A stretch of DNA of 64,000 bases. Source: a virus (Duplodnaviria > Caudoviricetes). Each line of letters begins with the position of its first letter. Within the stretch, counting starts at the first letter, position 1. A program made the translations under genes and the position numbers. The stretch spans positions 69,307 through 133,306 of the IMG/VR virus record IMGVR_UViG_3300021400_000126; one strand, given 5' to 3'. Of this stretch, positions 1,871 through 62,268 are shown in pieces. The notes under the pieces were generated by a model that had not been told where the DNA came from, did not search any database, and saw only the letters and a list, made by a program, of their open reading frames with translations.

Positions 1871-2338
1871 ATGTTAGCATTACTTCAAAACTACTCCTTA
1901 TCAGATATTTTTATATTTACAATTTTTTTAGCATTAGCTATAAAAAGTTTAATTTCTTTTTTTGACTGGTTTCAGGAATATTTTAAAAGAATTTTTAACA
2001 AAGAATATAATAAAATAAATGAAAAAGAGAGCTTAGAAAAAAGATTGCGTCAAGGAGACGAAACAATGGCTATGTTAAAAGCCAATCAAAAAGCTACAGA
2101 TTAGATATTAAAAGATTTATCTAAAAAAATAGATGTATTAATAGATTCAGATAAAGATCATATTAAATCTTATATAACTAAATAGCATCATTATTTTTGT
2201 TATTAGAGGGGATGGATTGATGATTTTAGTCTGGACTGTTTAGAAAAACGATATCAACATTATGCAAATGAAGGCGGCAATTCTTTTATAGAAGGATTTA
2301 TGGAAGAATTAAGAGCCTTACCAAAACAACCTAAATAA
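1871..2338 (+). CDS. holin-like membrane protein (155 aa, 3 in-frame TAG)
   Basis: N-terminal TM helix and coiled coil. Reading through TAG gives ...YITK*HHYFCY*RGWIDDFSLDCLEKRYQHYANEGGNSFIEGFMEELRALPK to TAA 2336-2338. Confidence 0.7.
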
Positions 2339-2367
2339 ATATATTAGAGATACAAGGAGATATTAAA

Positions 2368-5300
2368 ATGCCAATTTTAAATAATTTATATCCGCCTGTA
2401 GTTCCAGATACTATGCCGGCTTTCAATAGGGAAGAACAATGTAATATTGGTTTTTCTATTCCTATTTATAATTCAAAAGAAGATATAGCGGAAAACCTTG
2501 TACAAATTTCAATAACAAATTTAAAAACAAATATTTCAGCTTTTAATAAAAAATTATATCCATCTGGAATAAAATTTGCTACAATGACTCCTGTTAATAA
2601 TTTATATGGATATAATTATATAGTACCAATTAATAAAAATGATTTAATAAATGGCCGCTTTGAATTAAATACTTTTTATAAAGTTCAATTAAGATTTACT
2701 AAAAAAATTGATAAAATATCAAAACCAAAAAAAGAAAAAGAAAGCGAATGGTTTGAATCTAACTCATCAAATTTTTCAGAATGGTCTAAGGCTTGTATTA
2801 TTAAGGGTATTTCTGCCCCAACTTTAACTTTAAATAATTTTTCAGAAAATAATTCAAAAACCTCAGAAGTAATATTATCTAATCCTTTAATTGATATTAC
2901 TGGAAAATTAGTTTTTAGTAAAAATGAGAATGAATATTTAAAAAATTATAATATAAAAATTTTAGATGGAGAAACTAAAAAAATCCTTTTTAGAAGTGAA
3001 GATATTTATCCAACTGCAAAAAATGAATTTAACTATGTATTACCTTATGCTTTAAAAGATGGTGATACATATTTTTTATAGATTTCTTATATAACAAATA
3101 ATTCTTTTCAACAAACTAAACAATTTAAGTTTATTGTAATAGAATATTATGGAGTAGATAATTTAAATGCAGCTATTTCAACTTAGCCAAACTCCGATAA
3201 TGGAACCATAAAAGTAACAATTACCTCTATTTTAGGAGAATCTTTTTTAGGAAGTTTTACAATTAGAAGAACTTCTTCTGAAAGTAATTTTTCTCTTTGG
3301 GAAGATGTAAAAACGGTTTCTTATGAAAAAAGTTAGCCATTAAATTATGTATGGTATGATAAAACTATTTAGAGCGGAGTTTTTTATAAATATTGCGTCC
3401 AAAAGCGCAATTCAAATGGAATACGAGGTCCTATTGTAAAACCTTAGGATAGCGGCAATAAATCATATGTAATGTGCGAATTTGAAGATATGTTTTTAAC
3501 AACTGCTAATCAACAATTAAATATTAAATTTAATCCTGTTCTAAATGATTTTAAATATAATGTTACAGAATCTCAACAGGTTACAATAGGCGGAAAATAT
3601 CCATATGTAAAAAGAAATGCAGATAATTATTTTAGAACCTTTTCTATTGGTGGTTTAATTAGTTCTTTTGTAGATACCTCTGATTGGTATATCCCTAGCG
3701 CGGAGTAGTCTTCAAATGGTTATGAATTTGATGAAAAAGGTGGAGAATTAAAAAATTTTACTTCTAAAAAAGAAATTTATAAAGAAAATCTTTCATTATA
3801 TTAGTAGTATAATGAAAAAAATCATATTTCTGAATATGAAGATTATATTTATGAAAAAAGATTTAGAGAAAAAGTTTATGATTTTTTATATAAAAATGAT
3901 GTTAAACTTTTTCGGTCTAGTACTTAGGGGAATATTTTAATAAAATTAATGAATATATCTTTTCAACCAATGGAAAGTTTAAATAGAAGATTGTATTCCT
4001 TTACTGCAACTGCTGTTGAAATTGATGAAGCTAATTTATTTAATTATAATAAATATAATATAAGTGTTATTGGTGATTATCTTACTCAAGTTGAAATTGT
4101 TAAAGATGTTTTTGGTGTTATTCAAGGTACTTATGCAAATAATACTAATATATTTGATTTAATAAAAAATAAATATAATAATAATATTGATTAGGATCGT
4201 CTTATTGAAATAAATTTTCTTAAATATTTAAAAATAGAAATTGATTCTTAGCCATATCCAGTTTATTATAATAAACAAACTAAACAAGTATAGCCATTAA
4301 ATGATAATGCAATTTTTTCTGAATAGAATTTAAATTCAACTGCATTAGGTTATATAGTTACCATTAATGATAAAAATTATTTTATTCCTTCTCAAATAGA
4401 AAGAAAATCTATTTCAGACTAGAATATTCATAATGGATTTTTTGAATTAGATAATATTAAAATTACAAGTTTAAGTTTTCCGCAAGAAACAACCGTTCTT
4501 TTAACTTATACTGTATAGATTAAAGAAACAGAAAATCCTAATTATTTAATTAAAAGATTTAGTTATGAAGACGTTGTAGGTCAATTATATGGTACTTTTA
4601 ATCCTCAAGAATCTTTATTTAATTTAATTTATGTAAAATATTTTGAAAATGACAGTACATACTATAAAAGACTTGTAGATTTAATGGGCATTCGCGCAGA
4701 AGGGCCTCCTGGAGCAGTATTATATGTACAAGACTCAAATGATCAAGGATATTATAATAGGCACGTTTTAGAAAATGGATATTTGAAATTAAGAGATGAT
4801 AATGCAACTATTTTTGGATTATATTTTAAAGGAATACATCTTATAAAAAGTAAAAATTCTATTAATTTTTTAAAATCAAATCGTTTAAAAATTAATAAAA
4901 ACAACATTGATTGGGATAATGTAAAAACCTATGAAAGTATTCAAGAAATTATAGAAAAGGAATCTAATCTTCAAAATGGAGATGTTTTTAGAATATTAAA
5001 ATATGGAATTGAAGTAGATTCTTTTGATTCGGATGGTCATCCAAAAATTGATTTTTATAATGAGGGAACAACTGAAAACTCAGATAAAATAGTAAAAAGT
5101 TTTAAAGCATTATTTATTGCTTCTGAAAACTTAGATGATAATTAGGGCTGGATTGTTTCTATTGAAAATGAAGATAATTGGGGACAAGAAGTACTTAATT
5201 AGATTCATGATCTTATGCTTAAAGAAATAAAAAATGATGATTCTTTAAAATATGTATATTATTATGGAGAATGGTATCCTATTTTAAAAGCGGAAGAATT

Positions 5301-5550
5301 AAGTAAAAATCTTTTAAAAACAGATATAAGACATATTAGAGATAATGAATATATTTTAACAAATGAAATATATAATAATTTTTAGGAAATAGAAAATATT
5401 ATTCCTAATGGCGTTTATTATATTAATAATCAATATTATATTTATTATCATCAAAAATGGTATCCTTTTGATATGGATAATCATGATGTTTTATGTCCAA
5501 TAGATGGATTAATAGATTATTATTGTTAGATAGTGAGAGGAGCGTATTGA
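2368..5550 (+). CDS. large virion structural protein (~1060 aa, many in-frame TAG)
   Basis: track fragments 2368, 3472, 3949 and 4684 share one frame and end at TAG; TGA at 5548-5550, 4 nt before the next ATG. Confidence 0.75.
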
Positions 5551-5554
5551 TAAA

Positions 5555-7624
5555 ATGAGTGAATTATCAAATAATTATAAAAATGTATATATAGCTGATT
5601 AGGCTCCTTATTTAAAAGATTCTTCTTTTTTAAAAGATTTTGATAAAGTCAAATTAAAAGAACAGTTTGTCAGAATTTTAGTTTTAACTTTTGATGAAAT
5701 TCCTATGCAATAGATTCATGGAAAGGTTATAAGTGGAAATATTTCATTAGACGGGACTTCCGCAATGAGAAGAACGTGCAATATTAATTTAATTTTGGAT
5801 AATTCATAGATAACTTTAAACAATCTTAAAAATTTATTAAGTATTAATAAAAAAATTAAAATTTCAATAGGATTTACTAATGTTACAAATAAATATACTA
5901 ATTATCCTATTCTTTGGTTTCCGCAAGGTACTTATCTTATCATATCTCCTAATATTACTCATAATACAAATGGAATTAATATTTCTTTAACACTCCATGA
6001 TAAAATGGCTTTATTGAATGGAGAATGCGGAGGCGTTTTACCTGCTTCTGTTATTTTTCATGAAATAGAAGATGTTGATAGTGAAGGTAACACTTATATA
6101 ACAAAGCCTACAATATATCAAATAATTCAAGAATTAGTTAATCATTTTGGAGGAGAGCAATTAGGGAAAATTATTATTAGTGATATAGACAATCAAGCTA
6201 GACAGGTTATGAGATGGACAGGTTCAACTCCATTATATTATTATGAAGAACAAGGAGGTACAAAACTTTTTACAACTTCTATTTCAAATTTACCTCAAAA
6301 GACTTCTTATACACAATATAACTATGGAGAAAATATTGGATATACTTTAACAGATTTTACTTATCCTGGTTAGTTAATTGGAAATGCGGGAGATACTGTT
6401 GTAACTATTTTAGATAAAATTAAAGATACTTTAGGTAATTATTAGTATTTTTATGATATTAATGGTAATTTTAGATTTCAAGAAATAAAAAATTATTTAA
6501 ATACCTCAAAAGCTACTGAAATTATAAAAAATATTTCTTCTTAGCATTATTTAGTAGATTTTTATAATGAAAAATCTGTCTACACATTTGAAGATGGAGA
6601 AATTATTCAATCTTATTCAAATTCTCCTCAATTTCAACAAATAAAAAATGACTTTATAATTTGGGGAAAAAGAAAAGGATTGTAGGGGCAAGAAATCCCA
6701 ATTAGATATCATTTAGCTATTGATAATCAACCATTTTTTGGAAATACTAGATATAAGGTTTTTTTCTATACAGATCCTGAAGATAATATTAAAAAAGCTA
6801 AAATTCCTGAAGAGGGGAACCAACTACCTGAAAAAGGTGGTTTTAATAAATATTTCTTTTTAACTACAAATAATAAAATCTATAAATGGAATATGGAAAA
6901 GAATCATTGGGATGAAACTACATATCAACTTTATAAAGAAAAAAATGCTACTTAGGCAGGTATTATTGCAAAAGATTTTAGAACAGAATTATATTTATCT
7001 GGTTTATATCATGAAAATAAAGGAACTGAAAGCAATTATTATTTTGCAGAATTAAAAAATTAGTGGCCCAAAATCTATGATATTGAAAATGGAAAATTTT
7101 TTAATGAAATAGTTAAACATCCTAGTGATGTTGATTATTTTTTAGATTTTGTTAGTTATCCTGCCGCAGCTTCTGAGTTTAGTGTTTAGAATATTGGACG
7201 TAGAACTATAACTATTGTAGATGATAAAATTAATTGTATTTTCTCTCCATAGTTTCCTAATGTAGTTTTAATAAATAATTCAATGGACGCCGCGGAAATA
7301 AAAGCATTAAGATAGGAATGTATAAATAGAGGACAATAGTGGTGTCAAGTAGATGATAATGTTTATTCTATGTTAGATGTTGGAGAAGGTTTCAGATCTG
7401 CTTTTGACTAGATAAAAAGATAGTTATTTCAATATACTGATTATAATGAACAAGTTTCTTTAACTACATTACCTATTTATTATTTAGAACCTAATACTAG
7501 AATTTCAATAGAAGATTCTGAAAGTGGAATATATGGAGATTATATTGTAAAAAATATTTCTTTTTCTTTAGATATTAATGGAACTATGAACCTATCTTGT
7601 TCAAAAGCACTAGAAAGGAGTTAA
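5555..7624 (+). CDS. putative baseplate hub/tail protein (~689 aa, in-frame TAG)
   Basis: contains track fragment 6005-6373 in frame; C-terminal LPIYYLEPNTRI..GDYIVKNISFSL resembles hub proteins; TAA 7622-7624. Confidence 0.7.
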
Positions 7625-7637: not shown

Positions 7638-8384
7638 ATGTATTAGTTTGGACAATTTTTAAGTACATAGAAAAGTTGGACAAGTTATAAAGAAGATGTT
7701 AATTTATCTGATTTAACATTTGATTATATTGTTACACAACTGTCTAATGATATTTATGGCGGCAACCAGATTAAATTTGCAAATTATTCAATGAAATATA
7801 TGGAAGAAGGTACTATTCTTCAAAATGCACATTATTATTATTTAAATTTTAAAATAAAAAGAAGAAATGATCAAAGCAACAATCATGAACAGGTTTTTTA
7901 TTTAAGATTACAAAGAGTTGAAAATGATATCGTTGTAAAATAGCAATACATAAAAACTTTTAGAGTTCCAAATTCTCTTCTTTAGGATGACTATATTTCA
8001 TTTGAAGTAATTATTGCTCCTAATTCTAATTATAATCGGATAATTTGGTAGATGCAAAGAGAAATTATAGATTATACTATTTCAGAAAAAGTAAATGGAG
8101 TTTCTTATAATGGAAGAGTTGCTATTATTCAAGTTAATACTTTTAGTGAAATAATAAATACAATTGATAGTTTTCAACTTAATTCTCAAGAAGCATCATT
8201 ATCTAAAATTGGAATCCAAGGTCCTCCTTCTTTATTAATATGTCTAAATGGGGAATAGATTAGAATTGGTAAAAATGGAATTTATGAATTAAGTAATAGT
8301 GTATAGATAGTTTTTTTAGGTTTTATTCCTAAAAAAGAAACAGACTATTTTATAATTGATTATGTATATGAAGGAGAGGATTAA
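7638..8384 (+). CDS. structural protein (248 aa, TAG at codon 3 and others)
   Basis: GGAGG RBS; in frame with fragment 8052; C-terminus SKIGIQ..IGKNGIYEL..IDYVYE; TAA 8382-8384. Confidence 0.7.
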
Positions 8385-8386
8385 AA

Positions 8387-10525
8387 ATGTATTCTTTTTA
8401 TGGTGGACGACCTGGTAATTCTTTTATTATCATTACAACTTTTGGAAGTATTGCAGATATGGTCGCTGAATTTTCAAAAGGGCCAGCTTATACAGATGTT
8501 CATTATGATGAACATATTTTAATTAATACTACAAATAAAAATGATCCAGATAATGGAAAAATTTTTAGAAGAGGCTATAATTATACAGATGAACTTGGAG
8601 GAGCTGAATATATTGGTCAAATTGTTGGACCGTCGGGACCAGCACCAAATTTATCTTTAACTGAATATGACACAATAGAAGAGTAGAAGGCAAAACATGA
8701 TCCTAAAACCGTTGCTGAAAGAATAAAATATTCAAAGGGGAGCCTTTCTTTAATAGATAATGATTTAATTCCTGGATATGATAAAGATAAAAATGAATAT
8801 AATGATAAAATTTAGTGGAATTCATACTCTATTAGAACTGAAGGAAGTGAAATCTGTAATGCATATATAGGTTTTAAAATTCCATATTTAGTTATAGATT
8901 TATTAAGTGAAAAAGTAGATGCTCATAGCGATCCTGATGTTGTTGAGCATACAGATTCTCAAGGACATCCTTTTTATAAAAAATGGATTTTAAAAATACC
9001 AGAAGGAATTAAAGGAACTTCTTTATCTAATTTAAAAATAAAAAAATATGATGAAAATGAAGATAGAGATTTAATAACTACGGATGGACAGGCATATGTT
9101 GGAACAGAAGGAAAACATATTATGATTTATGATTAGACTTCTTACGATAATCCAGTTCCTACCGTTATTCAAAAATATCTTGGAGATTATAATATTATAT
9201 AGGATATTTCCCATGAAAATGGAAAATTATTAATAAAATGTACTAATGACGATATTCCACAAGAATTTCCAATTAATGAAATTGAATCTATAAATTTAAA
9301 TAGTAAAACAGGGCAGTTTTCTATTAAATATTATAATAAAGAGACTCCAATAACATTTTCATTAAAATGGGTAAAAGATGTTGATTTTGATGAAACAAAA
9401 GGAACTTTAACTTTTAAATACGCAAATTCTGAAACATAGGAAAAAGTTTGTCCAATAAATTGGATTAAAGGAGCTGAAACTAAAAAAGTTAGTCCAAATG
9501 ATGATAGAGAATTTTTATATTTAAACTGGGTAAATCCAATAGATGGAGATTCTAAAGAAACACCTCTTTCTGATTTTAGATGGATTAAAAATTTAATTTT
9601 AACAAAAAAAGGTTAGTTACAAGTAACCTACAATGATAATACTTCTAAAATATTAAATCCAAATAATCATATAAATTGGGTAGAATCTATTGGAGTTAAT
9701 AAGAATGGCGGTTTACATTGTATTTTAAATGATGGAAACACTTATAATATTACAATGGAAAATTCATTAAAATGGATAACTTCAACTTAGATTAGTGATA
9801 CAGGAGTTCTTACTATTAATTATAATGCGGGAAGCCCTCAAACTTTAGAAGAACACCCAATTAGATGGATAAAATCAATAGATTTATCAGCAGATGGAAC
9901 TTTAACCATTGTTTATAATACTGGTGAAACATAGGAAATGGTTAATAAAATTCGTTGGGTTCAAGATATGACAATGAATGATGATACTGGAGATGTTACG
10001 GTAGAATATAATGATAATACTACTAGTGTTTTAGGAACTCTTAGATCCATAGATTCTGTAAGTATTAATGAAGATAATCATTTAATGATTTTGTATTCTG
10101 ATTCTGAAGAAGCTGTTGATGCGGGAAGCGTTGCGGCAAATCTTATTTTTGATTAGCCTGTTTATGGATTAAATTGGAGCGGAATTGGTCAAATCGTTGT
10201 TTCAATAGAAGAAGAAGAGGGAATAGGTACTCAAACTGTAAAATATTTAAATTTTACCACATCCGCGACTTCTTTAATAGCAGATAAAACAATTAATCTT
10301 TTAGGATGTGATAATTTAATTACAACATTAAGAACAAATCAAGCTCAAATCTCTTTTGGTGAAAATTATTTGTCATTAATATCAGTTGAAAAAAATTTGA
10401 TTGGTTTGAATTTTATGATAAGAATTCCTGAGACAGAAAATTCAGCTATTTATGAAGATTTGACAGAAGGGGCTCTTGTGGATGTATTTATTTCAGGAGT
10501 AGATCTTTAGTTTATTGGATAGTAA
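8387..10525 (+). CDS. repeat-containing tail/baseplate protein (~712 aa)
   Basis: fragments 8387 and 9938 in frame; tandem (I/L)xW(I/V)..G.L.V.YN repeats; ends TAG-TAA. Confidence 0.7.
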
Positions 10526-12545: not shown

Positions 12546-15131
12546 TTATAATGTTGTTCTTTTATACAACACTCTAAGGTTGACAGTTATTTTGGCTTGT
12601 GAAGATGCAAAATTTCTTACGGTAGCATTTAGTGTAGTTGAACCCCAATAATTTGTCACAACACAAGAAGATGAATTCGCACCAGAAGTTGTGCCTTCGG
12701 TATCTATTTTCCATCCAACTATTGCAACAAAAGAGAATCCTGTCGGTGCTGTAGCAGTTATTGTAACAGGAGATAAACTGGTGTTAGCACCAATAGAAAC
12801 ATTGGTTTTTTTAAACTCTACAACTCTTACCATGTCTAGAATATTGCTAAGACCTAATGCCTATCGCCAAGCTGGTTTGGATGAAACTCTAACAATATTA
12901 TTTCCATCCTAATCAATTAATAAACGAAGATCGTTATAATAATTACTATTATTTACATTTCTATAACCTTGTAGTGTAATTCCTTGTTCACTAGTTTCAG
13001 AACCGCCTTCTCCTACTGGTCTAACATGATAAGCAATTCCACCCATCCTATTACCGTCCTTATCTCCTAAAAACAGCGCAAAAGGATTTCTAGAATTAGT
13101 GTATGCAAAATCATTTATTGATAATTGAGGGCAACTAATATAAATACCTCCTGTGGAATTGGGAATTCTAATTAAACTAGACCTGTGCTAGTTATCTGTT
13201 CCATTTCCAATTACAAAGGCATAGTCACCTGAATCAAAATAAACGTCAGGGCCGCCAACTGCTAAATCATCTGCACAATATACCTAATCTCCGCAGAATA
13301 ATCCAGTTGCATTTAATGACACTCCATTATAACTGCCTATAATCGTAGTCTCTGGTCTTGATTTTAATATACCATTAGTAGTAATACAATTTAAATCTAC
13401 TCCATTTGCATTGCCTTCCCAATCTACTGCAAAAATATTATTATCACTATTTCTTTCTTTTAATTGAAAAGCATAATTTTCATCTGCTTTTAATACTTGT
13501 GCGCATTCAGATTTTACATATCCCGCAGTTGCAATTTGGTTAGAAACTGTACCATTTGGGGTTGTAGAAGTAGGAATTCCAGTTAGAGATGGAGAATTTA
13601 TATTGGCTTTTGTATTTATATTTGTTTCAACAGTTAAAAGCCGTTCATTTAAATTTTTAATAACTAATCCATCAAAAGAATTAATTACCCAACCATCTTT
13701 AGTATTATTATCATATTTTATATATGTAAAAATCTTTAGTCCTGGTCCCCATTGATAATATGGAGTAGTATCTGTTATTACTGAAAAACTATTTGGTCCA
13801 TTTTGATACAAAATATCTTTTTCTAAAGAAGTCCCATTAATAGTTAAAGTGGGTGAAACTACATTATTTCCCTATGTAAAATAAATTAATATAGTGGCTT
13901 TTTCCGCAATATGATTTCCTAATTCTGTTCTTTCAATTAAACCACCATAATTATTTTCTGTATTATTTAAATTAATAATTTTTTCACTTGTTGTATTTAA
14001 AGTTTCACAAGTTCCTGTCCAAAGTTTTTGAATATTATTAATTGTATCTGTTGGAGCTATCCAAGGTACATTAACACTTAATTGATTTGCAGAATCAAAA
14101 ACTACAGGATATTGTCTATTAAGCATAGTAGAAGGTGGGTCAATGGAACTTAAATTAGTTTTAGTTGTAGTTTGTAAATTACTTTTAGTTAATTGATTTT
14201 CAACTTGTCCCTTTACAAAAGCGGTTGTTGCAATTCTTGTAGAATTATCTGTGGCTGCTGGGGTTGTTGAAAGAGGAGTTCCTGAAAAAGCTGGTGAAGC
14301 AAGATTCGCTTTTTTATTATTTAAATATGAGATTATTGAATAATCTATATTTGATAATAACCAACAGTTATTATTAGCTTTATAAACAAAAAATTTTAAT
14401 CCAGACCCAAATTTATAAAAAGGCTCTGTAGTAGTAATAAGTTGTATGTCCCCGCTCTAATTTAAAAATCCAATAGAATATTCTATATTATTAATTTTTA
14501 TCTTGGGAGCTTGTGCAGTATTTTTTTCTTTAAAATAAATTGCAAGAATTTCATTACCAGTTAAAGAACTTGGAAAATTTTCATTATTATCTAAAATAAT
14601 TGTTTTAATCTGGGTGGCGGCGGTATCTTCACAGGTACCAGTCCAAATGTTTTCAATTGATGATGAAAAAATAGTGTCTGTATCTGTCCAAGGAACATTA
14701 ACACTTAAATTCCCTGCCGCATCAAAAGTTACAGGATATTGTCTGCCATTTACACTTGTTGAAGCACTTGAAGTAAGGCTTGATAGCGCATCTGTTTTTA
14801 AATTATCTTTTGTTAATTGATTTGCAATCTGATTTTTTACAAAAGCAGTCGTTGCAATATTGGTAGAATTATCCGTTGCCGCAGGAGTAACAGATTTAGG
14901 AGTTCCTGTAAAAGTTGGTGAATTAATATTTGCCTTATTCTTAATTTGAGTCTGAAGAGGAATAATATTTTGGTTACTATCTTTTACAGAATCAATATCA
15001 CCAATAATATGCTGTTTTAAATTTAAGTCTAAATTACTGTTCCAGTAGACATTTTGAGCTAATGCGGTAATTGGTATTTCATCATAACCACCGCTTGCAT
15101 TTTTTACCTTTATGGCAACAATTTTATCCAT
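12546..15131 (-). CDS. tail fibre protein (~861 aa, in-frame TAG)
   Basis: four track fragments in one frame; three KANxxSPxxxGxP...IAT repeats; duplicated RQYPVxFD..LSVNVPW..WTGTCE module. Confidence 0.8.
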
Positions 15132-15203: not shown

Positions 15204-15518
15204 TTATAAATTTTCTAATTTTGTAAAAATTTTATTTGTAATATAAATAATTTCATCTCCATAGGTAGAAATCAAATCAGCTACTAACTACTATTGCTAG
15301 ATACTGAGATTTACATTATACGAAAACATTGCGGCGTGTGTAATTTCATGACAAAGAACTTTTTTTAATAAGTCTCCCTTTAAATTTTCGTTTATATAAA
15401 TAGTTCTTGTCAAATTATCACACGCTCCTATGGAAAATTCCCCAGATATCCTCTGTAAAAGAGGGAAATCTGGGGAGACAAAAGCAAGTTTCCAATAAAC
15501 TTTATTTATTAAAAACAT
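15204..15518 (-). CDS. small zincin metallopeptidase-like protein (104 aa, 3 TAG)
   Basis: IYIN..LCHEITHA followed by LSI*Q**LVADLI; TAA 15204-15206. Confidence 0.75.
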
Positions 15519-16159
15519 TAAGCAATTTTATTTGCCAACATTGTCATCTTTTGATGTAATGTGGCTCTTTCTTCGGGAGACGCATCTTTTATCATTTCGG
15601 TAATATCAGAAGAAAGCTCTTGAAGATATGCTTCTAATTCTTTTAACTGAGTATTAGAATCATAATTCATTTCTTTTCCTTCCATGTACATGCGGCGGCG
15701 CATAGGTGATCTACCCTAACGCGGGTCTCTCATAATATTTCCCATGTCAGAATACATCATTGTACTAGTTCTTCCCATTGTCATAGGCTCTTCATAGCCG
15801 CGAGTTCCATTCCCGCTAGATCCTGAACTTGAACCAGAAGAAGAACTACCGCCAGGATAATACATATACCCATTAGAACGTTCCATCTCTCTATAATCTG
15901 GATAATACATTCTAGGAGTGTAGTAAGATGGAGATCCACCGCCATAGTAATTTATGTTAGTTTCTCCGCCCTTATTGCTTTCTTCACTTTTTTCCATCGA
16001 CTAAGTAATTGTACAATAATAAATTGCTTCTGCAAGATCCTTTATCATATCAATTGCTTCGCCCAACTAATGAGCATCAACTTTTGAAATATCACCAAGT
16101 TGACCTTGAACACAACTCATTAATTGTTCTTTCATCATTTTTAAAGATTCTGTTGCCAT
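15518..16159 (-). CDS. Tyr/Met/Ser/Gly-rich cassette protein (213 aa, 3 TAG)
   Basis: joins fragments 15716..15997 and 15518..15703 with upstream MATESLKMMKEQ; GGAGG RBS. Confidence 0.8.
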
Positions 16160-16172
16160 ATCCTTTTCCTCC

Positions 16173-16628
16173 TTATGCTATTCTCTTGACATTTAATAAA
16201 GCCTCACGTCTTATTTGAATAGACGGAGTAGGTGTTGTAGTAGGATCATCTTCTGTTCCATCTACATACGCACCAGATACGGTTACACAACATCCACACG
16301 GCACTGTAATAAAAGCTGTAGTGTTTACATGCCAATATTCTTCAGCGGCCGCAGGCGTAACAATAGCAACGCTCTCTGGAATAACTGTTCCATTAAGGGT
16401 TATTCCTAAAGCAATTGGAGTTACCGCCCCTCCTTCGGGAATTTGAATATTACCTTGAAGAGTAACTTCATATCTTGAAAAACGATTGGAAGTATTGCCA
16501 TTTAAGTTAAGAACTCCAGGAACAAGAGGAACAACATTTCCCTTGTTGCACGGAATAGAAACACTATTAAAAGGAATTGTTCCATTTAATGCCACTAATG
16601 CATCAGTGGTTGTTACATAACTTGCCAT
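16173..16628 (-). CDS. beta-sandwich protein, BclA C-terminal/C1q-like, Cys-rich
   Basis: IPFN, YEVTLQGN, VPCGCC motifs; GGAGG RBS. Confidence 0.6.
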   Translation of the reverse strand: MASYVTTTDALVALNGTIPFNSVSIPCNKGNVVPLVPGVLNLNGNTSNRFSRYEVTLQGNIQIPEGGAVTPIALGITLNGTVIPESVAIVTPAAAEEYWHVNTTAFITVPCGCCVTVSGAYVDGTEDDPTTTPTPSIQIRREALLNVKRIA

Positions 16629-39548: not shown

Positions 39549-39549
39549 A

Positions 39550-47139: not shown

Positions 47140-49074
47140 ATGATTGATAAACATTTATACACAGAAGATAGCATTGAGAGTTTATCCCCTCTTGAATTTA
47201 CAAGACTTCGTCCTCAAGTATATGCAGGTGATTGTACTTATTCAACACAATTATTAGTTGAAATTATCTCAAATGCTGTTGATGAATATCGTCTTGGACA
47301 TGGAAATAAAATTGACGTTATTATTGATAATGATATTATTACTGTTCGAGATTATGGACAAGGTTTTATTCCAAATTCTTTCAGAGATGATGGTAAAACA
47401 ATTCTTGAAGCAGCTTTTAGTGTATTAAATACTTCTGGTAAATATCGTGATGATGGAACCTATGAAGGAACATCCCTTGGCTCTTTTGGTATTGGATCTA
47501 AAATAACTACATTTTTAAGTCATTGGTTAAATGTCTCAACTTGGAGAGATAATAAATTTGAACAAATTGTATTTAAAGAAGGTGTATTTGAAGAAAGAGA
47601 AGGCACACCTCATGGACCAGATACAAAAATTTCTCACGGTACGCGAGTGATGTGGCAACCTTCAGAAGAATTTTTTATTCATACAGAAGTAGAATTAAAT
47701 AAAATTCAAGATTTATTTAAAACTATTGTATGTCTTTGCCCTGGATTAACCATTAATTTAAATAATAATGGTAATATAGAACAGTTTGTATCTGCACATG
47801 GTATAAATGACCTTGTTGACGAGGCGGTTAATAGAAAACCTGATGAAAGTCATGGAGAGAAAGAACTTATTAATAATCGTTTTTCAATGAATTTTTCAGA
47901 AGGTAAAAATAAACTTGATATGGTTCTTACATATGCAAGTAATTATTCTTCAACTATTGTACCTTATGTTAATACTGGTTTAACAGAATCTGGACCTCAT
48001 ATTACTCAGATTAAAACTGTTATTACAAGAGAGTTTAATAAATTCTTCAAAGAAAAAAAATGGCTTAAAACTAAAGATTCAAATTTAACAGGTGATGATA
48101 TTCAAGAAGGAATGTATATAGTATTTAATATTACTGCCCCTAATGTAGGATATGATGCACAGGTTAAAAGTAGAATTACAAAAATTGATATGTCTCCTTT
48201 TACTTCTGCATTAAGTACAAATCTTAATATTTGGCTTAATAATAATGAAAAGGAAATTAAATCTATTTTTGAAAAGGCGGTTGCCGCACGTAAAGCACGA
48301 GACGCCGCAAAGAAAGCAAGAGACAAAGCAAGAGAACAGAATAAAAAGAAACAAAAAGCTCTTAAATTTGATAGTAAACTTGCGGATTGTTGGTCTAAAG
48401 ATCGCATGAAATGTGAGATATATGTAACAGAGGGAGATTCTGCCTCAGGCAATTTAAAGTTGGCTCGTAATAATGAATTTGTTGCGGTTATGCCTGTCCG
48501 CGGTAAAATTCTTAATGTAAGAAAAGCAACACTTGATAAAATTCAAAAAAATGCAGAAATTATGACTATGATTGATGCTTTTGGTCTTACTGTTGATATG
48601 AAAACAATGAAGTTAACCTATAATAAAGAAGACCTTCGTTACGGTAAGATTATTATTGAATCTGATGCTGATGTTGATGGTGCTCATATTAAAAATTTAT
48701 TTTATACTTTTATATGGACATTTTGTCCACAATTAATTTTAGATGGATATGTTTATGCAGGTGTTCCCCCTCTTTATAAAATTACCGAAGGAAAGGATAC
48801 TTATATTTATTTAAAAGATGATAATGAATTAGAAAAATATAGAACTAATCATAAAAATAAAAAATATCAAGTTAATCGACTAAAAGGTCTTGGAGAAATG
48901 TCTCCAGATGAGACTTCTATTTTAGTAGATCCAGATAAAAGAATTATTAAACAAGTAACTGTAGAAGATATTGTGACAACTAATAAATTGTTTGATGATT
49001 TAATGGGAACTCAAATTCTTCCTAGAAAAAGATTTATTCAACAACATTCACAGGAGGCAACTTATAATGTGTGA
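47140..49074 (+). CDS. gyrB: type IIA topoisomerase subunit B
   Basis: EIISNAVDE, DYGQG, EGDSA, PVRGKILN, DADVDG, RLKGLGEM. Confidence 0.92.
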   Translation: MIDKHLYTEDSIESLSPLEFTRLRPQVYAGDCTYSTQLLVEIISNAVDEYRLGHGNKIDVIIDNDIITVRDYGQGFIPNSFRDDGKTILEAAFSVLNTSGKYRDDGTYEGTSLGSFGIGSKITTFLSHWLNVSTWRDNKFEQIVFKEGVFEEREGTPHGPDTKISHGTRVMWQPSEEFFIHTEVELNKIQDLFKTIVCLCPGLTINLNNNGNIEQFVSAHGINDLVDEAVNRKPDESHGEKELINNRFSMNFSEGKNKLDMVLTYASNYSSTIVPYVNTGLTESGPHITQIKTVITREFNKFFKEKKWLKTKDSNLTGDDIQEGMYIVFNITAPNVGYDAQVKSRITKIDMSPFTSALSTNLNIWLNNNEKEIKSIFEKAVAARKARDAAKKARDKAREQNKKKQKALKFDSKLADCWSKDRMKCEIYVTEGDSASGNLKLARNNEFVAVMPVRGKILNVRKATLDKIQKNAEIMTMIDAFGLTVDMKTMKLTYNKEDLRYGKIIIESDADVDGAHIKNLFYTFIWTFCPQLILDGYVYAGVPPLYKITEGKDTYIYLKDDNELEKYRTNHKNKKYQVNRLKGLGEMSPDETSILVDPDKRIIKQVTVEDIVTTNKLFDDLMGTQILPRKRFIQQHSQEATYNV

Positions 49075-49270
49075 TTTTTGTAATAATATTATAAATGAAG
49101 AAGATTATAGAAAAAAGAATTCATATGATAGAATAAATTGCCTTGTGAAAATAAATTCATATGATTATGGATTATGGATAGAGTGTGAAGATTGGTATTA
49201 TAGTGGAGTAAAAATGTAGATTTCATATTGTCCAATGTGTGGGAGGCAACTAACAAATGTAGAACAATAA
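49067..49270 (+). CDS. small Zn-binding protein (67 aa, 1 TAG), paralog of 51894..52079
   Basis: MCDFC..YGLWIEC..YCPMCGR. Confidence 0.7.
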
Positions 49271-49478
49271 AAAATGGGAATATGTAAGTAAAAATGAATT
49301 AATTAATTTTATAAAATCATATCCATATCCATTAACTCAAGATTTTTTTATGGATGTTTATTCTTGGAATGATTTTAGAAATAATAAAAAATGGCCTGAA
49401 TCAATGGTAGCAACGGCATATGAAATGTTCGATACAAAAGAATATAAAATAAGAAAGGATTTATATAATGCAGAGTGA
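49257..49478 (+). CDS. hypothetical protein (73 aa, TAG as codon 2)
   Basis: GGGAGG RBS, M*NNKKWEYV...; fills the gap before gyrA. Confidence 0.55.
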
Positions 49479-51807
49479 TTTAATAAAAGAATTAAGTACA
49501 AACTTTATTGAATACGCCGCATCCGTCAATTCAGATAGAGCGATACCGAATGCTACTGACGGTCTCAAACCAGTTGCTAAAAGAATTTTATATGGAGCTT
49601 TCACAGGAGGAAGAACTAGTAATAAACCTCATGTAAAATGCGCGAAGATCGTTGGAGATGTAATGGGTTCTTACCATCCTCACGGAGATTCATCTATATA
49701 TGGTGCATTGGTTCGTCTTGCTCAGGATTGGATAATGCGTTATCCTCTTATTGATTTTCATGGTAATGTAGGGAATCAAGCGGGAGATGGACCTGCCGCA
49801 CCTCGTTATACAGAAGCAAGACTTTCTAAATTAACAGAAGAAGGTATGCTTCAAGGTTTAAAGAAAAATAATGTTGATTTCATTCCTAATTATGATGAAA
49901 CAACAGAAGAGCCTATTGAATTACCAAGTATTTTTCCGAATCTTCTTTGTAATCCCAATAGCGGAATTGGTGTTGCTATGGCTTGTTCATGGGCACCGCA
50001 TAATCTTGGTGAAGTAGCTGCGGCGATTAATCAGTATTTGTCTGGAAAAGAACCAACTTTACCTGGTCCAGATTTTCCAACGGGAGGAGTTATTATTAAT
50101 TCTAAAGATATTCCTGCAATTATGCGAACTGGACATGGTAGTGTAAAAATTCGCGGTAAATTTGAAATTGATAAACAAAAAATTATTTTTACAGAAATTC
50201 CCTATGGAACATCTGTTGAAGGATTAATGACTGAAATTGGTGAAGTTTCAGACGCAAAGGAAATTGAGGGCATTGATAATATCCGTGACGAATCTAATAA
50301 AAAAGGTATTAGAATTGTTATTGAATGTGATAAAGGTATCAATCCAGCAAGTATTGTAAATAAACTTTTTGCAAAAACAAAATTACAAAATTCATTCAGC
50401 TATAATCAAGTTGCTCTTGTTGATAAGGTGCCAACTGAATTAAATCTTAAAGATTGTATTAAAATTTATGTTGATCATAATATTGATTGCATAATAAGAG
50501 AAACCAAATTTGATTTAAATAAAGCTATTGATAGACTTGAAATTGTTAATGGTTTACTGCGGGCACTTGAGGATATTGACAATATTATAGCATTAATTAA
50601 AGGCTCTGAAAATGCGACCGCCGCAAAAGAAAATTTAATTAAGAAATACCAATTCACAGAAAATCAAGCTAAAGCAATTTTGGCTATGAGACTTTCTTCT
50701 CTTGCAAAACTTGAAAAAGTTGAATTAGAAAAAGAAGCTAAAGAATTAGAAAATAAAATTAATAATTTAAAAAATATTTTATCTAGCGAAAATAGACAAA
50801 AAGATATTCTTAAATCTCGTCTTGCAGATTTGGTTAAAAAATATGGAGATGCCCGCCGCACAGAGTTAACTCATATTGAATTTAAACCAGAAGATAAAAT
50901 AATTGAAGAAATAGTTCCTGAAGATTGTGTAGTAATACTTTCTCAAACAGGGAATATTAAAAGAGTTCCAAAAAAATCTTTTAAAATCCAACGTAGAAAT
51001 GGGAAGGGCGTTAAAACAAAAGACAATATTATAATGTCTACAATTTCTACTAATACTATTGATAATTTACTTTTATTTACTAAAAAAGGTAAAATGTTTA
51101 AAATTATTGTAGATGAAGTGCCAGTTGGGACAAATGCATCAAAAGGTGTTCATGTTGGAACTTTAATTAATATGGACCAAGATGATGAAGTAATTGCTAT
51201 TACTTCTCTTGCTAGAAGTAATACAGCAAAATATGTAGTATTCTTTACTAAACAAGGATTAATGAAGAAAACCTATCTTGATGAATATACTAAAATAAAA
51301 CGTAGCACAGGCATCGCTGCAATTAAAATTAATGATGATGATTCTATTGCTAATGTTGAATTTATTAACGAAGAAGATATACTTGTAATTACAAAAAATG
51401 GTATGTCTATTCATTTTGAAAGTAAAAATATTAATCCTATTGGAAGAATTGCGGCAGGTGTTAAAACTATAAAATTAGATAAAAATGATGAAGTTGTTGT
51501 AGGACTTCCAATCCATTCAGATAATGATATCGTTGCTATTTTTTCTACAAAAGGATATGGTAAAAAGACTTCTATTAAAGAATTTACAGTTCAGGGTAGA
51601 GGCGGAAAAGGATTAGTAATTTATAAACCAAGTGTTGTATATGGACAAATTGTTGGTGCAACAATTATTTCAGATAATGATACAATTCTTCTTACTGGTC
51701 AGCCGAGTTCTATATGCATTGCCGCAACAGATTTACCTTTATTAACTCGAACAAGTTTTGGTAATATTATGGTAAAATCTAATATTTCATCCATAGTGAA
51801 ATTTTAA
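49468..51807 (+). CDS. gyrA: type IIA topoisomerase subunit A
   Basis: DGLKPV, HPHGDSS, PAAPRYTE catalytic Tyr, C-terminal pinwheel with QRRNGKG/QGRGGKG. Confidence 0.92.
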   Translation: MQSDLIKELSTNFIEYAASVNSDRAIPNATDGLKPVAKRILYGAFTGGRTSNKPHVKCAKIVGDVMGSYHPHGDSSIYGALVRLAQDWIMRYPLIDFHGNVGNQAGDGPAAPRYTEARLSKLTEEGMLQGLKKNNVDFIPNYDETTEEPIELPSIFPNLLCNPNSGIGVAMACSWAPHNLGEVAAAINQYLSGKEPTLPGPDFPTGGVIINSKDIPAIMRTGHGSVKIRGKFEIDKQKIIFTEIPYGTSVEGLMTEIGEVSDAKEIEGIDNIRDESNKKGIRIVIECDKGINPASIVNKLFAKTKLQNSFSYNQVALVDKVPTELNLKDCIKIYVDHNIDCIIRETKFDLNKAIDRLEIVNGLLRALEDIDNIIALIKGSENATAAKENLIKKYQFTENQAKAILAMRLSSLAKLEKVELEKEAKELENKINNLKNILSSENRQKDILKSRLADLVKKYGDARRTELTHIEFKPEDKIIEEIVPEDCVVILSQTGNIKRVPKKSFKIQRRNGKGVKTKDNIIMSTISTNTIDNLLLFTKKGKMFKIIVDEVPVGTNASKGVHVGTLINMDQDDEVIAITSLARSNTAKYVVFFTKQGLMKKTYLDEYTKIKRSTGIAAIKINDDDSIANVEFINEEDILVITKNGMSIHFESKNINPIGRIAAGVKTIKLDKNDEVVVGLPIHSDNDIVAIFSTKGYGKKTSIKEFTVQGRGGKGLVIYKPSVVYGQIVGATIISDNDTILLTGQPSSICIAATDLPLLTRTSFGNIMVKSNISSIVKF

Positions 51808-51862
51808 AATTGAGGGGTTTATAAACCCCTCAATTGTTTTTTATAAAAAAATATGTTATAAT
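51807..51862 (+). terminator. terminator plus sigmaA-like promoter
   Basis: AATTGAGGGGTTT-AT-AAACCCCTCAATT; TTGTTT-17-TATAAT. Confidence 0.7.
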
Positions 51863-51893
51863 ATATTTATAAAGTAATAAGGAGTAAAATAGA

Positions 51894-52079
51894 ATGTGTG
51901 GTTTTTGTGAACGCATTGAAACAAAAAACGATTATAAAGAAAAACCTTTTTGGGAAAGAGATAATTGTATTGTCAAATATAATGAAATTTATGGATTATG
52001 GGTTGAATGTAACGATTCATATTTTAGTGGAGTGGCAATTAATATAAATTACTGTCCTATATGTGGAAGAGAATTATAA
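51894..52079 (+). CDS. small Zn-binding protein
   Basis: MCGFC..YCPICGR. Confidence 0.7.
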   Translation: MCGFCERIETKNDYKEKPFWERDNCIVKYNEIYGLWVECNDSYFSGVAININYCPICGREL

Positions 52080-52099
52080 TTTATAAAAGGTAAAAATAT

Positions 52100-54064
52100 A
52101 TGGAAGAATGGACAATTAGAAGTTTAATAGATGAATTAAATAGATTAACAAAACTTTATGATGCGGGTCACCCAGAAATTTCTGATAAAGAATGGGATGA
52201 TTTATATTTTAAATTACAAGAAATGGAAAAAGAAACTGGGACTATTTATCCAGATTCACCGACTCAAAATATTTATTTTAAAAAAGTATCTAAATTAGAA
52301 AAAATTCGACATACCCACCCCATGTTATCTCTTGATAAAACAAAAAATATAGAAGATATAAAAAAATTTGTATCTGGACATGATTGGGTAGCCATGTTTA
52401 AGCTTGATGGATTATCATGCTCTCTCGTATATATAGATGGTAAATTTGATCATGCTGATACTCGTGGAAATGGTGAAGTTGGAGAAGACATTACTCATAA
52501 TATTTATGCCATAAAAAATATTCCATTAACAATTCCTACGACAAAAGAAGTTATGGTAATTGATGGAGAAATACTTTGCACAACAGATAATTTTGAAAGA
52601 TTTCAAAATGAATATAAAAATCCTCGTAATTTTGCTGCGGGAAGCATTAGATTACTAGATGCACAAGAGTGCGCTCGCCGCAATCTAATGTTTGTAGCTT
52701 GGGATTTTATTCAAGGTTATGAAAATAATTCTTTTATGCATCAGTTAGAAGAATTAGATAATTATGGTTTTATTACCGTCCCAAGAGTGGGAGATGCTGA
52801 AACAGTTGATGACACTATTAAAATTTTAAATAATTGGAAAGAATTTACAACTTTTCCTATTGATGGATATGTATTTAGATTTGATGATCAAAAATATTAT
52901 AATAGCTTGGGGTCAACTGCTCATCACGCTCTTGGAGCAATGGCTTTTAAAATGTATGATGAAACTTATTCAACTAATTTAAAGTATATTCAATGGACAA
53001 TGGGAAGAACTGGTGTTCTTACCCCAGTAGCAGTATTTGATCCTATTGATATTGACGGTTCAACAGTAGAAAGAGCATCTCTTCATAATGTAAGTGTTAT
53101 GAAAGAAATTCTTGGTGAATGTGCTTATGTTGGAGAACCATTAAAAATATTTAAAGCAAATCAAATTATTCCACAAATTGCGGAAGCTGGACCAAAACAT
53201 GATTATGGTTATGTAATTACTCATAATGGAGTATCTGCTAACGATGCTATTGAAAGATGCCCCATATGTAGCGGTGATATTGTATATATAACCAGTGATG
53301 ATGGAGTAATTAATGCATATTGTGATAACCCTCTCTGCGAAGGTAAATTAGTAAATAGACTTGAACATTTTTGTGGGAAAAAAGGTCTTGATATTAAAGG
53401 ACTATCCAAAGCAACTTTTCAAAAATTAATTGATTGGGGATGGGTAGATTCTATAAAAAATATATTTTGGCTTTATAATCATCAAATGGAATGGATGGAT
53501 AAACCAGGCTTTGGAAAAGCATCAGTCTTTAAAATTTTAGATGCAATAGAAAAAGGAAAACATACAACATTAGATAAATTTATATCTGCGATAGGAATTC
53601 CCCTTATAGGACAGACCGCAGCAAAAGTTTTAGCAAATCATTTTAAAACGTATGAAGATTTTCGTACAGCTGTAAAAGATAAGGATTATCATTTTTTTAA
53701 CCTTGATAATTTTGGTGAAGAAATGGAATATCAATTAAAACATTTTGATTATTCTGAAATGGATGAACTTTCTAAAATTTTAATTTTAGAAACCACTATT
53801 GTTAACAATGAAACAATAAATAATAATCTTAAAGGAAAAACTATTGTTATTACAGGAAAACTTACAAATTTTAAAAATAGAAATGAATTAAAATCAGTTG
53901 TTGAAAAAAATGGCGGAAAGGTTGTAGGTTCAATTTCTAGTAAAACAGACATACTTATTAATAATGATGTAAACAGCACATCGTCTAAGAATAAAACAGC
54001 TCAAAAACTAGGTATTCCAATTATTTCAGAAACTGACTTTATGAAGCAATACCTTGAAAAATAA
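52100..54064 (+). CDS. ligA: NAD-dependent DNA ligase
   Basis: HPMLSL, KLDG, TRGNG, NPRNFAAG, Zn finger, HhH, BRCT. Confidence 0.95.
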   Translation: MEEWTIRSLIDELNRLTKLYDAGHPEISDKEWDDLYFKLQEMEKETGTIYPDSPTQNIYFKKVSKLEKIRHTHPMLSLDKTKNIEDIKKFVSGHDWVAMFKLDGLSCSLVYIDGKFDHADTRGNGEVGEDITHNIYAIKNIPLTIPTTKEVMVIDGEILCTTDNFERFQNEYKNPRNFAAGSIRLLDAQECARRNLMFVAWDFIQGYENNSFMHQLEELDNYGFITVPRVGDAETVDDTIKILNNWKEFTTFPIDGYVFRFDDQKYYNSLGSTAHHALGAMAFKMYDETYSTNLKYIQWTMGRTGVLTPVAVFDPIDIDGSTVERASLHNVSVMKEILGECAYVGEPLKIFKANQIIPQIAEAGPKHDYGYVITHNGVSANDAIERCPICSGDIVYITSDDGVINAYCDNPLCEGKLVNRLEHFCGKKGLDIKGLSKATFQKLIDWGWVDSIKNIFWLYNHQMEWMDKPGFGKASVFKILDAIEKGKHTTLDKFISAIGIPLIGQTAAKVLANHFKTYEDFRTAVKDKDYHFFNLDNFGEEMEYQLKHFDYSEMDELSKILILETTIVNNETINNNLKGKTIVITGKLTNFKNRNELKSVVEKNGGKVVGSISSKTDILINNDVNSTSSKNKTAQKLGIPIISETDFMKQYLEK

Positions 54065-54542: not shown

Positions 54543-55517
54543 ATGATTATATTAAATATTATTTGTTTTATTAGTTTAATTATAAGTATATTTTTATTTT
54601 ATATAACAAATAAAATAAAAATACATAAAGATATATAGCAAATAGAATATTCAGATAATTTAAAAAAATAGATTCATGATTTAGAATTAAATAGAAACAA
54701 TCTTATAAACTCATAGATTAAAAAAAGAGAATAGTAGCATATTAATTTTATTGAATATCAAAAATATTTAAATGAATAGAAATAGAAATTAAATAAAAAA
54801 TTAATAAAAGAACAAACTGACAAAAAAGAAGAAATTGATAAATACTTAAATAATTATCAAGAAACAACTAATTATAAAATTAAATAGATAGAAGAAGAAT
54901 CTTCTAAAGAAATAGAAAATATTCATTTAGATTTACAAAAAATTCGAGAGTCTGCAAAAGAAGAAAAATAGCAAATTCAAAATGATATTAATAAATTAAA
55001 GGCTTCATTGGCGGCAGGCGTATAGGCGAGACTCCGCGAACAAGAAAAAAAAGATAAAATTAATTTTTATAAATTATCAATTAATAATATAGATTTAGCA
55101 GATGTAAAAAAATTAGAAAATTTAAAATTATCTCTTCATAAACCTGTTATTTTAAGTAAATTAATATGGACTCAATATTTTCAAAAACAAATGACAGAAT
55201 TATGCAATAAAATTCTTGGAAAGAAAATTGTTTGTGGTATTTATAAGATTACCAATTTAAATACAGAAGAATGTTATATTGGACAAAGTGTCAATATAGC
55301 AGATAGATGGAAACAACATTGTAAATGTGGATTAGGAATTGACGCATCTACTACAAATAAATTATATAATGCTATGCAAAAAGACGGTGTATGGAATTTT
55401 ACTTTTGAATTATTAGAAGAATGTCCAAAAGAATTATTAAATGAAAAAGAAAAGTTTTGGATATAGATGTATCAAAGTAATAAATTTGGATATAATATTA
55501 TGAAAGGAATAAAATAA
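54543..55517 (+). CDS. membrane-anchored coiled-coil GIY-YIG nuclease (324 aa, ~11 TAG)
   Basis: N-terminal TM, long coiled coil, CGIYKITN..YIGQS..RWKQH..EKFWI*..GYN. Confidence 0.8.
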
Positions 55518-61329: not shown

Positions 61330-61611
61330 ATGAATCTAAAAAAATTTTCAAATAATAAAAATATAAAAGCGATTTCATTTTATAATCAAATATCATTAGA
61401 AAAAATATTAATATTTTCTTTAGCATTAAAAGAAAGTATCAATGATATAAAAATAGAAGTAATTCCAATGAGAGGCTCTTCAAAGTATTTCATTGCAACA
61501 TGGATTGAAGAAGAAGAAAATATTAATAAATTTATAAAAACCATTTATGAAAAATTCATTTGTATTTATAAAAGCTTAATTAAAATAAATATAGAAAAAT
61601 TTAAAAATTAA
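61330..61611 (+). CDS. hypothetical protein between duplicated helicase 3' ends
   Basis: 93-aa ORF. Confidence 0.45.
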   Translation: MNLKKFSNNKNIKAISFYNQISLEKILIFSLALKESINDIKIEVIPMRGSSKYFIATWIEEEENINKFIKTIYEKFICIYKSLIKINIEKFKN

Positions 61612-61656
61612 AGTAACATCTAAAATAGAAACAAGTGCTTTTTAAAGAGAACATAT

Positions 61657-61839
61657 ATGCAATATAGTAAATGTAAAAATTGTATTCATAATGGAGTTTG
61701 TAGGATTTTAATGGCAGAAGCTATATACTCGTTAAATCAATTCGTATAGCTTTTTAATAAAGCACAAACCAGAAAAACTGATAGTAAATGTATTTTACAA
61801 TTAGATTATATTTGTAATAATTTTTGTAAAAAAGAATAA
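61657..61839 (+). CDS. small Cys-rich protein (60 aa, 1 TAG)
   Basis: CKNCIHNGVC...ICNNF. Confidence 0.55.
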
Positions 61840-61851
61840 AAAGGAGAAAAA

Positions 61852-62268
61852 ATGATTATTTGTGGTTTTCCAGGTGTTGGTAAATCTACTTTGGCGAAAT
61901 CTTCTAATTGGGTAGATTTAGAAAGCACTCCGTTTGAAAAAGATTGGATTCGTTATGCAAAAGTAGTAAAACATATGAACGATAATGGATATAATATTAT
62001 GGTATCTACTCATCCTTAGTTATTAGAACAATTTGAACAAATGGAAGTAAAATATACTGTTGTAATTCCTCCTTTTGCTGATGTTTTCATCTATAAGGAT
62101 AGATATATCAAAAGAGGGAATGATATTGATTTTACCTCTTTAATTGAAATAAATTGGGATAAATGGATTGGAGATATTATAACAAAATCTTCAGTTAATA
62201 AAACTGTTGTAATATTACCAAAAGATGGTTGTTTACAAGCCTATATTGAAAAATATAAAAATATATAA
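61852..62268 (+). CDS. small P-loop kinase-like protein (138 aa, 1 TAG)
   Basis: MIICGFPGVGKST, DLES; TAG 62017 joins to the track fragment at 62041. Confidence 0.75.

Follow-up and report, generated by a model that had tools for sequence, protein, structure and literature searches.

A glutamate meaning for TAG is probable in a clade of large Firmicutes phages

Which amino acid does a phage insert where its genes carry in-frame TAG? The question is raised by a 64,000-nucleotide stretch of the IMG/VR record IMGVR_UViG_3300021400_000126 (hereafter the window). The record is one contig of 133,306 bp and 30% G+C, of which the window spans bases 69307-133306; it carries direct terminal repeats and is rated 100% complete. 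The 133-kb phage is a gut or rumen phage. Judged by its large terminase subunit (TerL), its portal and further virion proteins, it is one of the large SPbeta/YonF-type Firmicutes siphoviruses, and its kin include the Enterococcus phages H1 and EF1, Geobacillus virus E3, Lactococcus 949-like phages and also phAss-1. A survey of recoded phages observed only changes of TAG into glutamine and of TGA into tryptophan (10.1101/2021.08.26.457843), and proteomics validated glutamine at TAG in crAss-like phages (PMC9523058). Here comparative sequence evidence points to glutamate: we put at about 0.88 the probability that TAG is a glutamate codon in this phage and in at least 47 IMG/VR contigs that form a monophyletic clade, read by a phage tRNA with the anticodon CUA (tRNA-CUA).

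Translation table 11 breaks the late regions into short frames, which become long open reading frames (ORFs) closing at TAA or TGA once TAG is taken as sense; this read-through restores full-length TerL, portal, lysin and tape-measure proteins. Among ORFs of at least 80 amino acids, in-frame TAGs number 361 genome-wide and 205 in the window, are spread evenly along the proteins and would amount to about 25% of the Glu codons in late genes. TAG-rich ORFs are those of virion, tail, lysis, resolvase and homing-endonuclease-like genes; the genes for gyrase, ligase, DnaB, RNA ligase, DNA polymerase III alpha and helicases are TAG-free, the NrdD gene has one TAG and a RecJ-like gene two. Recoding is limited to the late and lysis modules, and the early genes are in the standard code. 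Because the ORFs stop at TAA or TGA, translation table 30, with both TAA and TAG as sense codons, does not describe this genome. Amino-acid composition is suggestive at most, with Glu 0.7% lower and Gln not lower in TAG-rich than in TAG-free genes. A sequence-only reading of the window had already joined same-frame pieces at TAG into frames ending at TAA or TGA, and had placed TAG opposite glutamate in two internal alignments. Both the joining and the alignments hold: IYFT-TAG-GNN of the tail-fibre repeat lies opposite IYFKEKN, and the paralogue end IDYQY-TAG opposite IDYVYE, where the Glu codon is GAA. Ten of the eleven cited TAG motifs that we checked are present as written, the remaining one, DFDK-TAG-F, not being found in the translated range. 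Its further placement of TAGs at conserved glutamates, made from family consensus, agrees in aggregate with the alignments described below but not at some individual sites, such as those of the lysin, which fall at variable positions and are little informative in PDB alignments.

Close relatives were represented by 57 loci from a TerL-based scan of IMG/VR, which gave 2490 codon pairs at 87 TAG sites. The codons opposite the phage's TAGs were GAA 1066, TAG 466, GAG 177, GAT 143, CAA 63, AAT 62, AAA 61 and CAG 51; in high-scoring segment pairs of at least 90% identity they were GAA 124, TAG 66, GAG 17 and TCA 1, with CAA and CAG at zero. Site by site, the majority non-TAG residue was Glu at 66% and Gln at 5% (4 of 82 sites), and Gln or Lys held the majority at about 10%. 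As controls, the phage's Glu sites returned Glu at 74%, and its Gln sites returned Gln at 80% and Glu at 4%. Conversely, the relatives' own TAGs stood opposite Glu 690 times, TAG 466, Lys 105 and Gln 80 over all relatives. When four complete relatives (G001, G002, G004 and G005) were each compared with the window ORFs and with the rest of the genome separately, Glu was the best candidate in all eight tests, by 34-90 log units, and the TAGs of these four relatives mostly faced Glu of the phage. In the RuvC-like resolvase, for which a PDB search gave no match, G001, G002 and G005 have TAG-TAG at the two glutamates of the phage's VVMEEVRP, and G001, G002 and G004 have TAG at the Glu of its NDDEADA; we take the MEEV and DDEADA glutamates to be the acidic catalytic residues of RuvC. 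Glu-to-Gln replacement at such residues abolishes cleavage. Since TerL carries from 1 to 17 TAGs among relatives 82-99% identical in protein (L044-L100), TAG and GAA/GAG swap quickly within the clade. The alignments show TAG to occupy Glu positions and to exchange with GAA and GAG as an apparent synonym.

The boundary of the recoded group lies close by. All 47 loci at a mean identity of at least 65% have in-frame TAGs, at 2-25 per 1000 codons, and eleven loci at 52-63% identity, GenBank MT836163 among them, have none; the contigs of these standard-code sisters are fragments, 15-56% complete. Against the eleven sisters alone, the majority residue at 73 TAG sites was Glu at 33, Asp at 6 and Gln at 3, the log likelihoods were -151.3 for Glu and -200.1 for Gln (Glu ahead by 49), and all 13 sites unanimous in at least four sisters were Glu. 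More distant homologues were sought by tblastn of every TAG-containing ORF, with X at each TAG, against the whole genomes of relatives, and a log likelihood for each candidate residue was computed with substitution tables from the same alignments. Opposite 136 TAG sites, Enterococcus phage H1 has E 37, D 14, K 12, S 9, N 9, A 8 and Q 7, with log likelihoods of -348.5 for Glu, -373.7 for Gln, -379.5 for Asp and -386.4 for Lys. Glu exceeded Gln by 34 against MT836163, and was best even against phAss-1, itself TAG-recoded, by 24 over Lys and Gln. Resampled true Gln sites reached the observed Glu-versus-Gln score in 0 of 2000 cases, and resampled Glu sites bracketed it. Columns in which at least two independent reference groups agree give Glu 10 times, Ala once and Tyr once, those with at least three groups Glu in 4 of 4, and TerL TAG sites 137 and 290 (SFNR-TAG-Y motif) have Glu in all five references. 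Asp and Lys, the next most frequent residues opposite TAG, occur there as often as they do opposite ordinary Glu codons. Wherever the comparisons are informative, Glu is the best fit, as the sequence-only reading had proposed, and Gln does not dominate the homologue columns, being worse by 25-90 log units.

Gln was recovered where it was expected. phAss-1 (OQ749652) has been published as reading TAG as Gln (PMC10607447) and is filed by NCBI in a 'code 15 clade'. Treated identically, its TAG sites gave Gln as best against three of five references (H1, EF1 and the window's phage); Gln tied for first place against an Alicyclobacillus phage, and against Geobacillus E3 no residue clearly led. The method can therefore yield Gln and separates Glu from Gln, and lineages within one wider phage group therefore read TAG differently. 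In a TerL tree that was searched quickly and rooted at its midpoint, and whose long branches are unreliable, the recoded group forms one clade (98 in the SH-like approximate likelihood-ratio test, SH-aLRT) that is sister to the standard-code group (97), with phAss-1 on a separate long branch.

The CUA suppressor tRNA that had been proposed from the window exists, outside it and with Glu-type features in place of U1-A72. It is the one suppressor tRNA that ARAGORN calls, at genome 65805-65883, with an Rfam tRNA match at genome 65806-65882 (L004:15806-15882; 45.8 bits, cut-off 29), and it lies 3.4 kb upstream of the window as part of a tRNA cluster. A tRNA-CUA likewise occurs in each of the five complete or near-complete relatives in which that region was inspected (G001-G005). 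Its acceptor stem reads C1-G72, G2.U71, C3-G70, C4-G69, C5-G68 and G6-C67, followed by A73; the D stem GUCU/GGAC (U11-A24, U13-G22) carries a 13-nt D loop and precedes A26, the anticodon loop is CUCUAAA, and the 4-nt variable loop GGAG has A46 and no residue 47. The major GluRS (glutamyl-tRNA synthetase) determinants of Escherichia coli tRNA-Glu include U11-A24, U13-G22:A46 and the lack of residue 47 (PMC9976931), and this augmented D helix is present in the phage's tRNA-CUA. Acceptor pairs 2-6 and A73 are identical to those of a Clostridia tRNA-Glu(CUC) and similar to those of the phage's own tRNA-Glu(UUC). Among 409 distinct tRNAs, the combination G2.U71, C3-G70 and A73 occurs in five tRNA-Glu, one tRNA-Met, one tRNA-Val and six clade suppressors; a U-A or A-U first pair is found in 16 of 16 tRNA-Gln and in none of the clade suppressors. 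The relatives' suppressors share the acceptor stem and have 9-nt D loops; they keep U11-A24 with G13/A22 and a 5-nt variable loop, like some phage tRNA-Glu, and the D stem varies (GUGG/ACAC or GUCG/AGAC) while conservation holds in the acceptor, anticodon and T arms. From 23 tRNA-Glu and 16 tRNA-Gln we built covariance models, which score the tRNA-CUA at 55.3 bits for Glu and 46.0 for Gln; Glu leads by 6-23 bits in 7 of 7 clade suppressors, and the two suppressors of phAss-1 favour Gln by 7-10 bits. As only two isotypes were modelled, the support is for Glu rather than Gln, not for Glu rather than anything. Judged from its sequence, the tRNA-CUA probably derives from a tRNA-Glu. Ranking 333 phage tRNAs by their similarity to it did not clearly single out an isotype, and BLAST against 399 Clostridia genomes for a host source gene returned partial matches only, mostly to tRNA-Trp anticodon and T arms.

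Exact copies of the 17-nt anticodon stem-loop, GCGGTCTCTAAAACCGC, were found in 48 viral contigs (IMG/VR loci L101-L148), where they sit on very different tRNA bodies, some Gln-like, some Glu-like and many with variable arms of 13-21 nt (for example L105, L116, L128, L130, L132, L133, L138 and L145). Other phages may give TAG further meanings, perhaps of Ser, Leu or Tyr type; alternatively, sharing or convergence may account for the anticodon arm. The same tRNA cluster includes a phage transfer-messenger RNA directly after a tRNA-Ser (L004:17803-18083, genome 67803-68083; Rfam 101.9 bits), with the tag peptide ADNYTYQMAA predicted by ARAGORN.

Six frames of the complete genome contain neither PF00749, the core of GluRS and of GlnRS (glutaminyl-tRNA synthetase), nor the release-factor domain PF00472, no synthetase was seen among the phage's large ORFs, and no pyl genes were found. 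With no synthetase of the phage's own, a host enzyme must charge the tRNA-CUA, and the Glu-type body suggests GluRS. An endolysin search for the host gave weak matches, to metagenome-assembled genomes of Ruminococcus and Clostridia. Of 61 sampled Clostridia genomes (G008-G067), 36 carry a full-length glnS, the gene for GlnRS, so the common assumption that Firmicutes hosts are without GlnRS fails for the class Clostridia. A non-discriminating GluRS, as suggested by the sequence-only reading, acting in a host without GlnRS is one possible setting. GlnRS uses U1-A72, G2-C71, G3-C70 and G73. The bacterial amidotransferase GatCAB favours tRNAs with U1-A72 and turns away those with G1-C72 or with an additional base in the D loop (PMC2811023). 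Because these acceptor determinants of GatCAB and GlnRS are all missing from the tRNA-CUA, Glu is expected to stay on it. In the mechanism that we propose, the phage's own tRNA-CUA would read TAG after the host GluRS had charged it with Glu. With C1-G72, G2.U71, C3-G70, A73 and the enlarged D loop in place of U1-A72, G73 and a 7-nt D loop, the tRNA would escape both amidation by GatCAB and charging by GlnRS, so that Glu would be inserted at TAG in competition with release factor 1. The early replication genes, which avoid TAG, would be read in the host's standard code, and structural, lysis and endonuclease genes would require TAG read-through. We infer the efficiency of charging and the timing of the switch.

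Several observations weigh against glutamate or against this route to it. U34 and C36 are strong GluRS determinants in E. coli (PMC9976931), and the YUC anticodon of tRNA-Glu is absent here, with just U35 and A37 kept; as CUA has neither U34 nor C36, efficient charging needs a tolerant host enzyme, and the anticodon would be the weakest step of the proposal. The first pair of the tRNA-CUA is C1-G72 rather than the canonical G1-C72 of tRNA-Glu, which appears only in the suppressor of G005, there with C73, and the D arm carried by most relatives (GUGG/ACAC, variable loop of 5 nt) has neither U13-G22 nor the deletion of residue 47. Among the alignments, Geobacillus E3 favours Gln by 9 units and the Alicyclobacillus phage favours Ser, both references being distant and of low information. 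The decoded residue is one that we infer from evolution. Conservation at TAG sites falls somewhat short of that at ordinary Glu sites: against MT836163 the log-likelihood ratio reaches 33.9, and random Glu sites would be expected to give 45-78. The shortfall could reflect relaxed positions or a minor non-Glu component.

The lower conservation bears first on ambiguous decoding, in which the tRNA-CUA would carry mostly Glu plus substantial Gln, because GatCAB amidates part of it or GlnRS mischarges it, and the proteins would be mixtures. We think this unlikely. The sites with a Gln or Lys majority and the presence of GlnRS in the sampled Clostridia speak for it, and tRNA-Glu-based amber suppressors of E. 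coli are partly charged with Gln, but the conservation deficit would follow equally well if TAG had arisen preferentially at tolerant sites, the acceptor stem is without every GlnRS and GatCAB acceptor determinant, and Gln at TAG sites of invariant or presumably catalytic Glu would inactivate part of the molecules. Ordinary code 15, with TAG as Gln and the Glu columns as tolerated Glu-to-Gln replacements, is more improbable still. Precedent favours it, in that the published phage TAG reassignments are all to Gln (10.1101/2021.08.26.457843, PMC9523058) and the related phAss-1 reads Gln (PMC10607447 and our control), as do the slight Gln preference of the Geobacillus E3 columns and the Gln majority at four sites. 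It founders on the 141 pairs at 90% identity or more in which TAG swaps with GAA or GAG and never with CAA or CAG, on the poorer fit of Gln in every informative comparison, on TAG at invariant Glu of TerL and at RuvC acidic-motif Glu presumed to be catalytic, and on a tRNA-CUA that has neither U1-A72 nor G73 and scores as Glu-like. A different residue, be it Asp, Lys or a non-canonical amino acid, is barely conceivable: Asp and Lys do rank next opposite TAG, and A73 and U35 are also LysRS determinants, but both residues fit worse than Glu by 30-100 log units and are no more frequent than opposite ordinary Glu codons, and neither pyl genes nor a synthetase gene were found.

Read with TAG as glutamate, the phage resembles the code-15 phages (crAss-like, Lak, Garnet and the phAss-1 group) in having in-frame TAG concentrated in structural and lysis genes and TAG-free early genes, a phage tRNA-CUA without a synthetase of its own, a presumed standard-code host and standard-code relatives near in the tree. 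It differs from them in the residue and in the suppressor, which here would have a tRNA-Glu body (G2.U71, C3-G70, A73, long D loop), whereas theirs has a tRNA-Gln body (weak U1 pair, G73); relative to phAss-1, the recoding appears on the quick TerL tree to have arisen separately. In the peritrich ciliate code (NCBI table 30), TAA and TAG both mean glutamate, and TAG is read by a tRNA related to tRNA-Glu. The glutamate reading of TAG is common to both, but the peritrich code is eukaryotic, genome-wide and reassigns TAA too, whereas in the phage TAA and TGA stop, TAG lies in late genes and the host code is standard. Just as the first base pair and D-loop size part tRNA-Glu from tRNA-Gln in the pathway of non-discriminating GluRS and GatCAB, so they part the clade's suppressor from that of phAss-1. 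To our knowledge, no natural amber suppressor has been described as fixing Glu at a stop codon by the GatCAB discrimination rules. It is an even bet that TAG as Glu is a distinct code of the whole clade of large Firmicutes phages, arisen separately from TAG as Gln in phAss-1, and that its meaning is set by whether the suppressor has U1-A72 and a short D loop, the entry to GatCAB or GlnRS, such that, without any synthetase from the phage, a tRNA-Glu body would yield Glu, and Gln would come from a tRNA-Gln body.

Full-text literature searches found no report of TAG as Glu in a phage, only papers on TAG-to-glutamine. The restriction to Gln and Trp is usually explained by the ease with which GlnRS and TrpRS are hijacked. 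A glutamate reassignment would break this Gln/Trp-only rule, suggest GluRS as a third usable enzyme and add a new natural genetic code for viruses. Gene callers and databases using table 15 would put Gln at about 2% of residues in the clade's virion and lysis proteins, catalytic glutamates included, and such mistranslation harms annotation, structure prediction and peptide identification. Recoded phages, their standard-code sisters and a Gln-reading lineage in one wider group offer a system for studying how a codon gains meaning, and the tRNA-CUA may serve as a natural Glu-inserting amber suppressor.

Table 1 Features of the window and ORFs with a late sole TAG (window coordinates unless marked; aa, amino acids)
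Feature	Coordinates	Strand	Basis
ORF, 172 aa, 4 TAG	1820..2338	+	TAG-as-sense translation
Virion/tail ORF, 1060 aa, 19 TAG	2368..5550	+	Aligned to Enterococcus phage H1 and four complete relatives
ORF, 689 aa, 15 TAG	5555..7624	+	TAG-as-sense translation
ORF, 248 aa, 7 TAG, end IDYVYEGED, paralogue of 10542-10898	7638..8384	+	
ORF, 712 aa, 11 TAG	8387..10525	+	TAG-as-sense translation
ORF, 118 aa, 4 TAG, end IDYQY-TAG-L, TAG opposite paralogue's GAA	10542..10898	+	
Tail-fibre-like ORF, 861 aa, 6 TAG	12546..15131	-	Internal repeat: TAG opposite Glu
Two ORFs, 104 aa (3 TAG) and 224 aa (4 TAG)	15204..16192	-	
RuvC-like resolvase, 162 aa, 8 TAG	18501..18989	-	Pfam RuvC; alignments to relatives
Tail ORF, 1684 aa, 23 TAG	19333..24387	-	TAG-as-sense translation, alignments
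Tape-measure-like ORF, 3010 aa, 73 TAG	24722..33754	-	TAG-as-sense translation, alignments
ORFs of 1229 aa (2 TAG) and 126 aa (3 TAG)	35904..39930	-	
Endolysin, GH25 and ELLD domain, 502 aa, 7 TAG	44819..46327	+	Pfam, PDB alignments
TAG-free early block: GyrB-like, GyrA/ParC-like, NAD-dependent DNA ligase; standard-code readable	46437..54064	+	
GIY-YIG endonuclease ORF, 324 aa, 11 TAG, amid TAG-free replication genes	54543..55517	+	
ORFs with sole TAG just before TAA/TGA	genome 5771-6544, 40512-40946, 45124-45468, 45560-45973, 38679-38960; window 39550-39930		

Some early ORFs that are short or otherwise free of TAG have a sole TAG 0-4 codons ahead of TAA or TGA (last row of Table 1). At early times of infection, TAG may still end such ORFs, and the stop close behind it would serve as a back-up when suppression sets in.

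Otherwise TAG-free early regions also contain TAG-dense ORFs: the GIY-YIG ORF of Table 1, a 259-aa helix-turn-helix-like ORF with 12 TAGs (L003:17236-18015, minus strand) and a 275-aa ORF with 7 TAGs (L004:11439-12266, plus strand). They resemble mobile genes of the endonuclease type, and they would be expressed in the recoded phase only. DNA polymerase III alpha lies in two ORFs, one with the PHP and NTPase-domain start (L001:4134-5552) and one with the remainder (L001:6603-9272), and between them sits a 257-aa ORF (5771-6544). The arrangement may reflect a split gene or a mobile element lying between the two parts.

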